Of a DNA stretch of 36,078 nucleotides, positions 18,001-24,000 are shown piece by piece. A program made the position numbers. Within the stretch, counting starts at the first letter, position 1. Each line of letters opens with the position of its first letter. This stretch comes from a virus: the UHGV virus genome UHGV-2168191. The stretch is one strand, 5' to 3'.

Positions 18001-21000
18001 CCACCACCGATAGCATTGAATATGTCTGCTGTGTTTAAATCGATTATGCTCATCTACTCTCCATTAAACAAAAACCCAGTCGAAGCTGGGTTTAGTGAAT
18101 TGGCTAGTTATCAAAAAGTCCGTACGTTTCTTCTTCTTCAGGAGTAAGGGGAAGAATCTCAATTCTATCTATAGATACCTTTTCAATGTACCCATGAGGT
18201 CTGCTTAAAATTAAAGCTCTCTCATGCCACAAAACACCAAGAATGTGATATCTCCCAGCATCGCCTTTTACCCTGGCTCTTCCTTTGATTCTTGGCGGCA
18301 TAATGCCATATTTTTTCTTTGCCATTATGCAACATTACTCCCATGAACCAGGTGTTGTAGTGCTTTAACACCTTCCGCATTGTAGCGGAATGCTTCCACC
18401 TGTTTGCTGGAATGCGCAGATTTATCCAGGAAGAACTTCCCGTACTGCTCAGTTTTGAGGTTGTTTGCGTTAGCAATGCGACCAATCTTGTTGGCCGTTA
18501 CTCCAAGCTGCTCTGCAACCTCCCCTGCTGAGTAGTAATGCTCTTCTATTGCTGGAAGAGGTATTGCATTAAAACCAACGATCGGGTTGATTATGCTTGC
18601 TGCCGCAGTCTGCTTTGCTTCCGGCGCAAGATTTGGCATCAAATCGAACAGATTGGTAACAGCTTCAACCGTCATTTTCAATGTTCGCGCCTGGCGATAC
18701 TCAACAAGTCCACTAGACGATTTACCGCTTTTAATGTGCGCTTCTTGCATACTTTCAAGTTGGTCTACAAGTGAGCGGCGAACAGCTTTAGATTCACGAG
18801 CAGCCACTCGAAGGGCTTGCTTAATTGACATAACAACTTTTTCAGAAGTTGTCTTGTTTGATTTTTGAACTACGAAAATTTCGTAGTGCTCACCTTCAAG
18901 TTCATCCTTAATGCGTGCAATAAAGTCGTTATTGCGGACTTCTTTTTCCCCGCACTGTCTACGAGCATGATTGACCATCTCTAACAGGTACTGGCTATCA
19001 ATGGTTTTATCCGTGACAACGGATCCGATGTTTGCTACATTCTTAAAAGTCATTAGGCATTCCTTATGTGGTAGTAAGGGTGTGACATAGGCCGCCAGCT
19101 GCACACTGGCGGTTTTTTTTCACCACCAGATGCGTCATTAATACAGATGAACAGAAGGCGGTAATTCTTTATTCTTAAGCCTTATCCATGCAGAAAGATT
19201 TGTTGGTCCGTCTGGCTCATTGATATCAACATCTCGTGTGTGGTTGATTAAAACGTCTCTCGCCGTTCCGATAACATACGAGAACTCATGACCGTAGTCG
19301 TAGCATCTGCCGGAATAGTTCGATTGAATTTGTTTTAATGCCGGATACAGTTCGCGGAATAATGCCTGTGAGCGGTTGGCATAATCCCATAACCATACAA
19401 GGCTGTTTGCTTCTTTTGCGGAAAGCTCGTTGGTGCTCTTCTCTTGTTTGCTAATGAACTCACCTTCAAGTGGAACTCGAGCTGCAAGTGACAGTGCTTC
19501 GGTAAACTGCTCCTCACTGATTTCTTTGTACGAACATCCAAAATGGGATTTCAGTGACGACCACATGGTGATCATCGCCTTCGCCTGTTTTTCTTTTGGC
19601 AGAGACTGACCGCGACTCATGACAAGTTGTTTAATGGCTTCCTGCTGTTCAGTGGTGATTTTGCCCGGCAACGCCTTTTTAGCTTTGCGCGGGTTAACCA
19701 CATGGCCTTTAGTCCAGTAGTCATGCAGCACAGTAAAGCATTCTTCCTGGTACTGAATCAGTTTATCGCGGATGTCAGCACGAACTTTCTCAGGGTTGAT
19801 GCTGAACAGCCATCCATTTAACTTCTTCAAAGGAAGGCAGAGTAGCTTACGAAGCTTCCCATCAGCAGCAACCATATTCATATGAATACAGTTGAACTTA
19901 TCTAGTTGTTTCATAAGTTTTTGTTGCTGAGTACCCCAGCTCATTCCGAGGTTTTCAACGATTGGCTTCATCGCAACATATGCAACTCCTGCAGCCATGG
20001 CGGTGATAATTTGCTGACCGTTGAAGGGTACGTAAGAGGTGTTCACTGCTTCTAAAATTGCTATACTATTCATATCAGTTTTCTCGTAGTTAACTGGTAA
20101 TTTAGAAGCCTCAATGGTTGCAGCCATTGGGGCTTCGCTGTTTTTAGCGACCATTCGCCACCTCTTCCCTAACACCTTTTGCCAGCAAACGAACAATTGC
20201 AGAGTTCAGAGATATACAGTCCATTTCCGCCAGGCGGCGAAGGTCTTCATTCAGCCGTGATGGAAGGCGAAGGTTGAGTTTGATATTTTTGCGCTCAGTG
20301 AAAAGTGTATCTTGCATTATCTAATCTCCTTTATTTGGTGCCAAAGTGACGCCATGAAGGCCATAATGCCACCATTGAAATCGTATGGCAATATGGCACC
20401 ATGGTTTTTTTGAGAGATTTGCAATGGCCGAAAAACAAGTAAAAGACTACGACAAGTTCAACCTCCGTTTTCCTGACGGAATGCGAGATGCTATAGCTGA
20501 ACGAGCTAAACGTAACGGCAGATCAATGAACTCAGAGATTGTGCAGATACTGGAAGATGCCTTGAATGCAGAAAATACTCTTGGGGAAATAGCAGACAAA
20601 ATCAACAGCGTCTCGGTTCCGCTAAATGTTGATGCGCTAGTTCAACTTCAAGCCCAGGTTATCGCCATGCAAAAAGAAATACAGGAAAAGTTCAGAGAGC
20701 AAAACGAAAAGTTAAGAGAACTGCTAAACAAAAAACCCACCTGACGGTGGGTTTTTCTTATTCTTTATCTTTTAAGTCGATGGTTCTTTGTCCAATAACC
20801 TTTTCATCTATGTATTTCTCATACTCTTCTCGAGTATCAGAAACCATTGCAATACCAGTAACCTTACCTATTTGGGTTCTAAGAGCTTTAACTCCAACCT
20901 CTGATAAAAACTGGTGTATTTTATCGTTTTTGCTGCCTTTCTCTTCTTTTGACGTTTTTGCTAAATTAAATACCTTTCCTTCACTTCTGGCTAATGGGTA

Positions 21001-24000
21001 GTAAATGTGATCTATCGTAAGATATTTAAACGCCCACGGTCGCCCTCTAACTGGTTTGTCTATACCATACAGACGATACCAATGCTCATAAAGTTCAGGG
21101 GTGAACTCTCTTTCATACTCACGAGCCTCTTCAGCAACATATCGCTTATATGCTTGAATTACTTCTTCTTTTGTTCTGTCATACCCTGCCAAAGCATAAA
21201 CAAGCCCCTGAATTCCCGCCTTGGCTGATGCATCAATAATTATCCTGGCTTGCTTAGCAATCCCTTCCTGACTAGAAAGCAACTTACCTTCAGCTTTAGC
21301 GTTAGAGATTGCTCGACATAAATCAATTAAGATTGTTACATCGTAGCCATGTATTACAGGGTTAGCTGGTGTGTTCGTGCCCACCTGTTTGTATTGAAAA
21401 ATAAGAGGATTTTCAAGTTTTGCCCTTAATTCATGCCCGATATACTGAGAAATAGTTTTCCCCTGAATAAACTTTGGCAACCTGCTGCCACCTTCGCCAA
21501 GACCAATCGCTTCTCCCATGCCTCTCTGGCTAATAACGGCAGTTTTGTTATCATCATTTAACACATAGCACTCAACATCAATCCCGAATTCATGCTGGAA
21601 CGATCCCTTATGCGTAGCAATTAATGGTTTATCCTTCCATCTTGCAGCCGCTGCTTTCTTTGCTATTTCAGAACGCTGCTCTTTAGTCAGCGACTTTGCG
21701 CGAGCGATTCCGCCCTTAGCTTTCCCTTCACCACTTTTCTTTTCAGTCATAATGCAAGCACCTTTGCTGTGATATATGCTTGCATTATATGCACTGTACC
21801 CACATACAAGCAAGCATAAAACAAAAGCAAAATGCTTGCATTGCAACCGCACTACTCCAACTACACAGTATCATCTGGTATCCTGCGTAAAACCGAGTGT
21901 TGCGTGCTTTTGCTTAAGTTAACGGATACAAACATAGGAAACGTTACAAGGGGAAAGAATGAAATCCAGATTTTTCACAATAGCAATATTTTCTTCCGTT
22001 CTTCTATCACTCGCAGCTTATGCTGCATCCGACAAAGATAAGGAAAAAATGATGTCTTTAATAAAAGATGCTTCTCCTTATGTTGCAGGCATGGGCAAAA
22101 GCATTGATGAAGTTTGTCAGGATATGGCTAACGACATGGTAAAAAAGTATGGAAATCAACTTAGTGCTATTGGCAAGTCACCGTCAGATATACGAGATTC
22201 ATCGTATGGTATATGCTTTGACGCTGCATCTTCAGCATCATTATCGCAATCCATAGAAGAAGTAAGCATGTGGAAAAATGCAGCAATGCAAAACATTAAC
22301 GCCACATTCCGAGGCGAGAATGAGCAATCTCCCGCGCGAAAATTTCTCGTTGAGACAATTGATCACTCTGAGAAAATGGCAAAAACAATTGCATTCATGC
22401 GGGAAATTAGTCAATAGCAAATCTGCTAAGGCACTGCACTTGAAAATGCCTGATTTACTGATGATCTGCGATTCAACTCCTTAAATCCTTCGGTTAGTTT
22501 TGAGGATTGATCCGTTTTGGCAATTACCTTTACCTCTCCTATGTGCTGGCTGTTGTAATTGTTAACAACGCTTTGGGTATAGGATTGATTTGCAGATCCA
22601 TTAGCCAATCTTTGCTGAGTTTGGTAGTAAGCGGCATTGCTATTTTTCGTTGGGTTACCATAATCAAGACCCCGCTTCCAATCTGGATAACCTTCATGCC
22701 TAGCCATATAGGCGCTAAGTTTTGCCATAACCTCTGGATCTGAGAGGTTTAGCTTATCATTGGCACCAACGCCCATAGACTTAGAAACCTGGTCAATATA
22801 CGCCTTTGTGTTGTTTTCTGAGGATGGTGCCCACTTGCTTATTATTCCTTGCAACGTATCAAGCTTATCTCTTTTGTAGTATAGAGTCAGTTGATTCCTG
22901 GCGGCCTCCCAACCCTCTTCTGGGTCGAAGTATTGAGCAAATCCGTCTTTGTCTCTTCTTCTGTTTCCAGTAGCTTTAAGATTTAATGGGTTATTGTTTC
23001 TGTCAGGCCTGTTGACACCATTTTTGTTAGGAGGAATCTCTTTATTTGGATCGTCATAATCCAGCCCAATGAGCCTTTCAAGCCAATGCTGCTGAAATGC
23101 GAATGGCCGCATCTCATCAGGAACATCTTTATACTGGTCTTGTACCATCTGCCCAAAAATACCAACAGCACCGATTAATCCCAGCTTGCTTCCTAACCCC
23201 TTGCCGCTAAGAAGAGCCATGGCAGCAAGAATGCCCAATGCGTTTCCAGCGCCACCAACGGCTTTAACAAAACCATCAATACCTGTACTCAGGTTCCTGA
23301 AGAACCCAACAATGTCACCCTTGTTGTTTTTCAGCCACTCTAAAAACTCCTGTTCAGCTTTAAGCACTTCAGGGCCAAATGTAGCCATTAATTCTTGTTT
23401 AACCTGAGCAAATTGCGAGTCAAGGGCTTTAGTCGTAGCAAGAATGTTGCGCTGTGCTTCTTCCTGCTCTTTGGTCATCTGCCATCGTTTTTCTTCCTCA
23501 GATACCATCTGCACAGCTTTTCCGCTTTTAATATCCCCGGCAAGATTAGGGTCATAACCAAAAGCAGAAAGCACTTGCATTAACTGTTTCTCGTTATGGT
23601 TCTTCCCATATTTCTGAAATTCCGCCAGAGCATCTTCTGATTTACCTCCAAGCTTACTAATATCAATGCCTGTTCTCGCTCCAGTTGTTAGTAAATTCTG
23701 AGCCTCCGGTGTAAGTCCGCCGAAAATTGTTGGGTCTTCTATATTGGCAAGCGCCATCCTGGCGCTCATCTGTGCCCCAAGGAACGCGCCGCCGTTCTGA
23801 CCAATTCGGGAGAATCCATACTGAGTACCAAGAACGTTACTGGCGCTTGTTCCAAGCATTCTCCCCATATTACTGGCTCTTACAATTGACTCCGAAGTAC
23901 TTTCAAATGCACGATGAATGCCAATGGCTACGGCAGTCAACACACCGCCAACAGCCACAAAGCGTGTCGAAAGCCCCAAAAAACCATTAAATGAAGCAGT

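Follow-up and report, generated by a model that had tools for sequence, protein, structure and literature searches.

The virus genome UHGV-2168191, a 36,078-nucleotide stretch of DNA that is called the window below, contains a gene of the P63C family that is preceded by four copies of a 10-bp pseudo-palindrome, ATGC(AA/TT)GCAT. The question raised by this locus is what these repeats do, and which molecule acts on them. Judged from comparisons of sequence, the repeats are very probably an operator of the P63C promoter that is bound by a protein, and the P63C protein itself is probably the one that binds. A basic motif close to the N terminus of this protein could well be the element that reads the sites.

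The four sites, S1 to S4 (Table 1), alternate in orientation, and their centres are 24, 32 and 24 bp apart. Their order on the gene strand is AATGCAAGCAT - 14 nt - ATGCTTGCtT - 22 nt - ATGCAAGCAT - 14 nt - gTGCTTGCAT - TATG, with the central dinucleotide running AA, TT, AA, TT from S1 to S4. The sites thereby form two inverted pairs, S1 with S2 and S3 with S4, each spanning 34 bp. Two stretches, 21832-21842 and 21776-21786, match ATGCTTGCATT exactly; the inverted copy at 21751-21761, AATGCAAGCAc, adjoins the ATG at 21750, and the fourth copy (21807-21817) has one mismatch to the 10-bp core. A first-pass annotation of this DNA had described three copies and a partial fourth. The repeats are indeed real and clustered, but they are better described as four sites in two inverted pairs. 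The search for the motif elsewhere in the prophage that was proposed at that time finds the exact 10-mer nowhere outside the array region of the 36-kb window. When one mismatch is allowed, the window has eight matches, which is the level expected by chance; four are in the array, and four are scattered outside 21752-21841. Four such near-matches within 100 bp were not seen in any of 1000 first-order Markov simulations, in which the maximum was three (once), and two occurred in 69.

The array is superimposed on promoter-like elements. The -10 hexamer matches the sigma-70 consensus at six of six positions, and its final two bases are the first two bases of S3. The -35 hexamer matches at only three of six positions, and the spacer is 18 bp. 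The putative ribosome-binding site (RBS) is directly 5' of S4, and one base separates S4 from the ATG. With transcription predicted to start near 21777, the sites would cover about -60, -35, -10/+1 and the gap between the RBS and the ATG. The promoter had been called near-consensus, and both hexamers and the spacer are present as described. However, the -35 match is partial, and a promoter scanner gave no promoter in 21750-21958, so the promoter is called here because of its comparative conservation.

The start codon at 21750 had been preferred to the GTG of a longer open reading frame (ORF), and this choice is upheld, because homologues align from Met1 and the RefSeq form has 330 aa; the longer ORF runs through the repeats. 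Annotations of other family members often begin at an upstream ATG or GTG within the operator, which yields a spurious Cys-rich N-terminal extension. Such upstream starts are found in the window (20758-21852), in protein P0106 (364 aa) and in orf23 of Salmonella phage ST104 (L152, 3917-4996). The ST104 gene is annotated from an ATG inside S3; the conserved start is at L152 3954, and the long form is clearly an artefact.

The array is conserved far beyond the window. Among the loci gathered (68 from IMG/VR, 80 genome loci and several annotated records), 86 non-identical upstream regions have the same four-site layout with a fixed orientation pattern. The core, TGC(AA/TT)GCA, is conserved in at least 84 of the 86 at every position, and the flanks vary freely. 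Centre spacings are 22-26, 30-33 and 22-25 bp, with unrelated intervening DNA. The bases before S3 read T (68 of 86), A (74), n, n, A (70) and T (82), S2 provides TTGC(A/T)T with an implied spacer of 17-18 bp, and S4 lies between a purine-rich RBS and the ATG. At most loci, the final AT of S4 is shared with the start codon (ATGCTTGC-ATG). The repressor-operator layout over a promoter that had been proposed from the window is thus borne out by 86 loci with the same sites over TAnnAT, TTGC(A/T)T and the RBS-ATG gap.

These loci are found in Beta-, Gamma- and Alphaproteobacteria, Syntrophaceae, Myxococcota, Acidobacteriota, two Firmicutes and one Abditibacteria genome, and the proteins of array-bearing loci are 32-68% identical. 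ST104 orf23, which follows cI and a terminator, has the same array although its product shares only 32% identity with the window protein. At most 100 bp upstream of family genes, there are 294 copies of the core 8-mer, compared with 14 in the remaining ~605 kb, where about 18 are expected by chance. Among 20 near-identical enterobacterial versions, two of 40 columns vary within the sites and 24 of 93 vary outside them (p = 0.004), a bias that indicates purifying selection on the sites.

Some subgroups have variant operators at the same position. The acidobacterial variant is an inverted pair, TATACTTGCyCGrG ... CyCGrGCAAGTATA, with the site TATACTTGCCCGAG. Operator variants are found in L088, L092, L096, L100, L101, L103, L116, L119, L120 and L135, and L123, L132 and L151 have other operators, ATGCTTGACA/TGTCAAGCAT and TGCTAAGCAT.

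Several other explanations for the repeats can be considered. That they are a chance cluster, or a functionless leftover of duplication, has a negligible probability. The window-wide count of near-matches is what chance predicts, but this idea is refuted by conservation of the array across phyla amid unrelated spacer DNA, by the enrichment of the core 8-mer upstream of family genes, by the preferential conservation of columns within the sites and by the simulations. Alternatively, the inverted repeats might act as a nucleic-acid structure, such as an RNA hairpin that hides the RBS and ATG, an attenuator, a DNA cruciform or a single-strand hairpin. S3 and S4 can form a perfect 12-bp stem with the RBS in the loop, and predicted folding is strong for both the 46-nt RNA (-16.4 kcal/mol, z -3.5) and the 104-nt region (-45.3 kcal/mol, z -5.8). 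However, it is the sequence that is conserved, and not the pairing. No two-sided compensatory changes are present; position 10 of S3 and position 1 of S4 combine as TG (33), TA (33), CA (11) or CG (6), and uncompensated mismatches include G-to-A in S4 (seven loci) and A-to-T in S2 (23 loci). The AA or TT orientation is fixed at every site, which pairing alone would not need. Moreover, with a start inside S3, as the conserved -10 implies, the predicted mRNA would be without the 5' arm, and its fold is ordinary (z -0.1). A search of Rfam gave no family match and, at E <= 1, only sub-threshold hits resembling microRNA precursors that arise from the long dyad. A structural role of this kind is quite unlikely.

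Instead, the binder might be the product of another prophage gene, for which Arc, Mnt and the immunity repressor are candidates; the sites would then be its operators, and the P63C gene would be under immunity control. The P63C gene does adjoin an immI module with arc, mnt and ant, and phage repressors typically have several operator sites over a promoter. Nevertheless, even with one mismatch allowed, the motif does not occur between arc and mnt (20317-20385) or, apart from chance hits, anywhere else in the window outside the array. Identical arrays also occur with no Arc or Mnt nearby, namely after cI in ST104, in an Azotobacter prophage and in transposons of Acidobacteriota and Firmicutes, whose immunity systems are unrelated or nonexistent. 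Because the same array stands beside unrelated immunity systems or none, Arc, Mnt and CI are effectively ruled out as the binder, and this explanation is very unlikely. The earlier suggestions that Arc or Mnt might bind, and that the gene is tightly repressed, are accordingly dropped; rather than to control by the phage immunity circuit, the layout points to self-repression with steady, low expression. Another alternative is that the paired sites are a recombination or transposition site resembling res between tnpA and tnpR of Tn3, on which the P63C protein or an IS1-like transposase acts, with promoter control as a by-product. In the ~25 genome loci described below, the array does lie between divergent transposase and P63C genes within elements bounded by inverted repeats, and resolvase subsites are similar in span to the 34 bp of each pair. 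This is unlikely all the same, given that the array is intact in phages without a transposase or terminal repeats, that the sites fall exactly on both promoter hexamers and the RBS-ATG segment, that the core motif is not found at element ends, and that the P63C protein gave no match to a family or fold of recombinases or nucleases. A host factor was also considered as the binder and rejected, because the sites are identical in hosts of different phyla.

If the repeats are an operator of the P63C promoter, the P63C protein, which the first-pass annotation had also named as a candidate, is the binder favoured by the evidence. The same operator occurs in three contexts, namely immI (the window and L001-L003), after cI (ST104) and IS1-family transposons, and a P63C-family gene is the sole gene common to them. 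Because the array travels with this gene, independently of Arc, Mnt or phage immunity, autoregulation is the best explanation.

A basic motif followed by a P63C-like domain had been noted in the protein, and both are confirmed (Table 1). Scored with a purpose-built hidden Markov model, the motif is present in 124 distinct homologues, of which 116 have a type-I or variant operator, six have degenerate sites and two have none. Seven homologues are without the motif, and the operator is found in none of the seven, although their bodies are still 53-58% identical; they belong to different phyla, and the N-termini that replace the motif differ among them. When acidobacterial proteins, which go with the variant operator, are compared with type-I proteins over the whole alignment, only residues 10 and 35 are diagnostic, and both are in the motif. 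Residue 10 changes from K/R in type-I proteins to A, and residue 35 from A/I/L/V to Q/E. The motif is found in no other ORF of the window.

The E. coli prophages contain at least three lineages of the P63C body, which are 46-47% identical over residues 44-330. Their residues 1-43 are 93-95% identical, and the 150 nt upstream about 91%. With a conserved head and a divergent body, the operator and the N-terminal arm behave as one exchangeable block.

Several points weigh against a self-repressing P63C protein that reads its operator through the motif. In addition to the partial -35 and the silent promoter scanner mentioned above, physical proximity confounds the link between motif and operator: a stretch of ~220 bp contains both the operator and the first 43 codons, and replacement of the 5' end removes both together, so that some joint loss or exchange would be expected whatever their function. 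The co-variation at residues 10 and 35 comes from 10 sequences of one clade. The transposons encode a second, small protein with the motif, which is a possible binder there. Self-repression is surely not the only role of a 330-aa protein with such conservation, and a literature search found no paper on the motif or on what the domain does.

In the mechanism that we infer, the P63C protein would bind the sites, probably as one dimer on each pair, with each subunit at one site. Sequence recognition would come from the N-terminal motif, possibly assisted by the winged-helix-like domain (residues 43-137). Binding would exclude RNA polymerase and block early elongation, and the level of P63C protein would stay low and constant in the lysogen. 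The predicted activity, sequence-specific binding to ATGCAAGCAT with self-repression, is cheaply testable; mutated versions of the site core TGCAAGCA are TGCATGCA and TGGAAGCA.

The P63C domain (PF10546) is named after p63 of Myxococcus phage Mx8, and Pfam detects it in the window protein with 35.8 bits, compared with a cut-off of 26.1. The protein also matches phrog_2384 over residues 6-328 (E 3.5e-103), and both families are annotated as having an unknown function. There are 2766 homologues, of which the top 120 are all at least 60% identical, and invariant residues are spread along the whole chain. An AlphaFold model of the full-length protein, with a mean predicted local distance difference test score (pLDDT) of 75.5, begins with two helices, continues with a confident alpha/beta domain (residues 43-137) and ends in a helical C-terminal half. 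A structure prediction aimed at nuclease or DNA-binding folds, as had been proposed, is answered in part: the alpha/beta domain weakly resembles a winged helix, but no nuclease fold was detected. Pfam, NCBIfam and PADLOC have no model over residues 1-191, and Pfam and NCBIfam yield nothing for the isolated motif. A profile search of PDB sequences returned only spurious repeats of designed Kelch proteins. Kinship with the neighbouring Ant protein was considered and rejected, since hhalign found none.

Outside phages, the array is associated with transposons. A gene for an IS1-family DDE transposase is located on the other side of the operator in about 25 genome loci and diverges from the P63C gene. 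The transposase has ~280-300 aa and matches Pfam DDE_Tnp_IS1 above its cut-off and the NCBIfam IS1 model with E ~1e-18. In ~20 loci, terminal inverted repeats of the form GTG(T/G)(C/G)TCAGTTTGAA, which were paired by a fuzzy search seeded with the L075 repeat, bound units of 2.3-3.9 kb. These units are 63-74% identical in DNA between phyla. The window has no adjacent transposase gene, and the repeat GTGKSTCAGTTTGAA was not found in it at up to three mismatches. A literature search on ISMhu11 returned nothing relevant.

The transposon units have a third conserved gene, which is convergent with the P63C gene and located just downstream of it. Its product of 73-91 aa has a C-terminal half that consists of the basic motif, GGxKGGKARAxxLTxExRxEIAKKAAxxRW, as in P63C residues 9-38. 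This gene is present in 33 of 148 loci, for example L075 (3972-4241, minus strand), L077, L081, L090, L093, L104 and L148. The small protein belongs to no Pfam or NCBIfam family, and no paper on it was found in a literature search. Between the terminal repeats lies variable cargo of predicted defence or toxin-antitoxin type, which includes an N6_N4 methylase-Mrr_cat fusion, dCTP-deaminase-like, HicA-like toxin and CopG-antitoxin-like proteins, DUF3800 and DUF6731.

The basic motif is also common outside the P63C family. An exhaustive phmmer search with residues 8-43 gives 340 protein clusters at E <= 0.001, and proteins P0121-P0270 are among the clusters listed. Most are proteins of 50-130 aa in which the motif is C-terminal or occurs in tandem, often as two or more copies. 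Because it is found alone, in tandem and fused across at least 340 clusters, the 30-aa motif is by all sequence indications an independent, mobile module. In P0122 the motif is fused to an XRE-type helix-turn-helix (HTH), and P0175 has eight tandem TPEQRSEIARKA repeats behind an N terminus that is GIY-YIG-like by eye only. The motif resembles the NUMOD-type helical modules of homing endonucleases, which are likewise short, basic, helical, repeatable and fused or in tandem; this likeness is a lead and implies no membership, and the Pfam NUMOD models give no hit for the motif even at E <= 10.

The promoter and operator, the P63C-family gene and its terminator form what is probably a self-contained, self-repressing cassette of 1.15 kb. 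As had been described, the P63C gene is convergent with the mnt-like gene and divergent from a gene for a protein with a signal-peptide-like N-terminus (152 aa); the convergent pair has a common terminator. In related E. coli prophages, the P63C gene is always flanked by immI on one side and the DNA-ejection or tape-measure gene on the other, and in the window it occupies what is presumably the position of sieA in P22. Its distribution is patchy, with 70 of 5426 E. coli genomes containing it.

Other positions of the gene hint at its role. In the Azotobacter prophage, it is in a rex-like slot after cI, beside an Endonuclease_1 gene and a ParE/Phd pair, and in Ralstonia it is beside Mrr_cat. At one and the same prophage locus, alleles differ strongly in the gene body. 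The sieA-like and rex-like positions, the defence cargo and the divergent body suggest an accessory or exclusion-type protein expressed in lysogens, or a core regulator of a transposon. PADLOC-DB v2 has no defence model that matches the P63C protein or its 152-aa neighbour, which does not exclude a novel defence role.

A broader proposal is tentative. The P63C family, the four-site operator and the motif GGxARAxxLxxExRxEIAxKAAxARW might constitute an undescribed, horizontally mobile regulatory module, in which a new type of sequence-specific DNA reader, the motif, would be deployed as a small protein, as tandem repeats or as an N-terminal arm. The P63C protein might then be a core, self-limiting part of cross-phylum IS1-type transposons with defence-type cargo (dCTP deaminase, methylase-Mrr fusions and toxin-antitoxin pairs), and the regulator cassette alone might have been captured by temperate phages for their exclusion-gene slots. 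If so, the P63C protein would couple recognition of ATGCAAGCAT to an effector activity, for example in exclusion or defence, or in controlling transposition.

The proposed mechanism, in which a protein represses its own gene through several operators, is of an already known kind. Autoregulated repressors of phages and plasmids, such as P22 Arc and Mnt at Pant/Pmnt, lambda CI at PRM and type II antitoxins, likewise have short inverted sites that overlie both hexamers and the early transcribed region of their own promoters, and their operators move with the gene of the binder, as they do here for the candidate binder. Unlike these repressors, the P63C protein has 330 aa and no recognised HTH or ribbon-helix-helix, and its candidate reader is an unclassified two-helix motif. 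No partner toxin or target promoter is found in the window, and conservation of core and geometry across phyla is unusual for operators. Prophage morons such as P22 sieA and lambda rexAB are also similar, since the P63C cassette is monocistronic with its own promoter and terminator, occupies a sieA position here and a rex position in ST104, and is patchily distributed. However, self-repression through a built-in operator array is not general among morons, and PADLOC gives no hit. The arrangement in non-phage loci resembles Tn3 tnpA-res-tnpR, in that transposase and P63C genes diverge from an intergenic region with paired sites, where one bound protein could control both. In contrast to Tn3, there is no serine-recombinase domain, the transposase belongs to the IS1 family, and the arrangement is absent from the window.

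Apparently undescribed are the protein family, the invariance of the array across phyla, the candidate DNA-reading motif and the association with IS1-type transposons; the literature search found no paper on the array, on the N-terminal motif or on the link with transposons. P63C is a widespread family of phages and mobile elements, with thousands of members in several phyla. For this family, the analysis supplies a defined candidate operator and a candidate DNA-reading motif that hundreds of other small proteins share, and the setting in prophage exclusion slots and defence-laden IS1-type transposons hints at where the effector function lies. The near base-for-base preservation of the array from E. 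coli prophages to Acidobacteriota and Firmicutes makes this an unusually clean mobile regulatory circuit.

Table 1. Features of the P63C locus in the window and of related transposon loci (L numbers)
Feature	Position	Strand	Remarks
Antirepressor gene (P22_AR_N and P22_AR_C domains)	19138-20196	minus	immI-type region
Arc-like gene	20144-20317	minus	immI-type region
Mnt-like ribbon-helix-helix gene	20385-20744	plus	immI-type region
Stem-loop terminator, A and T runs on flanks	20731-20756	strandless	called on plus strand; minus-strand T-run read from sequence
Whole cassette	20745-21893	minus	~97% identity to P22-like E. coli prophages
P63C-family gene, 330 aa, ATG at 21750	20758-21750	minus	Pfam, PHROG
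Pfam P63C domain, residues 202-289	20884-21147	minus	within helical C-terminal half
Alpha/beta domain, residues 43-137	21340-21624	minus	weak resemblance to winged helix
Mosaic head module, operator/promoter and codons 1-43	21621-21893	minus	91-95% conserved among E. coli alleles
Basic two-helix motif codons, residues 9-38, GKAKGGIARAKSLTKEQRSEIAKKAAAARW	21637-21726	minus	AlphaFold helices 10-20 and 23-38
Intergenic region, 208 bp			between P63C gene and divergent 152-aa gene
Predicted operator site S4, gTGCTTGCAT on gene strand	21752-21761	minus	between RBS and ATG, about +17 to +26
Putative RBS, AAAGG	21761-21765	minus	read from sequence; purine-rich block before S4 in family
Predicted operator site S3, ATGCAAGCAT on gene strand	21776-21785	minus	overlaps last 2 bases of -10 and predicted start near 21777
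Putative -10 hexamer, TATAAT	21784-21789	minus	read from sequence; TAnnAT directly before S3 kept in 86 loci
Putative -35 hexamer, TTGCTT	21808-21813	minus	within S2
Predicted operator site S2, ATGCTTGCtT on gene strand	21808-21817	minus	contains -35 hexamer TTGCTT
Predicted operator site S1, ATGCAAGCAT on gene strand	21832-21841	minus	about -64 to -55 from predicted transcription start
Divergent 152-aa gene, signal-peptide-like N-terminus	21959-22417	plus	
591-aa tape-measure or lytic tail protein gene	22426-24201	minus	
Transposon units	L075 1977-4271; L104 1250-4282; L125 781-3530; L118 1434-5224; L109 98-3036		~15 more
Cargo loci	L091 439-2000; L148 405-2064; L122 549-1957; L082 1136-2100		
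Cargo loci	L077 1129-1980; L085 1049-2041; L090 5-1496; L118 4100-5210		

The protein encoded by the divergent 152-aa gene begins with MKSRFFTIAIFSSVLLSLAAYA, with putative cleavage before AS, and has no match in Pfam, PHROG, NCBIfam or PADLOC. Among prophages with the P63C cassette, the slot of this neighbour varies and is occupied by genes for 109, 122 or 152 aa.

A second antirepressor-type gene (18325-19104, minus strand; phrog_1726, E 8e-100) is located immediately downstream of ant, so the immI module in the window has two antirepressor-like genes. The arc/mnt-like segment (20300-20751) shares 96% identity with phages of E. coli O157:H7 that are Stx1- or Stx2-converting. This identity ends at the terminator, and those phages are without the P63C cassette, which places a mosaic joint at ~20745-20751.

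The window also contains two tail modules. One is P2-like, with a gpD-like tail protein gene (3165-4265), a tape-measure gene (4744-7821) and a sheath gene (phrog_23, 8830-10002). The other has a sheath gene of a different family (phrog_205, 25266-26756), baseplate genes (13798-17054) and a terminase gene (34014-35540). The presence of two tail modules suggests that the window comprises two adjacent or fused prophages.

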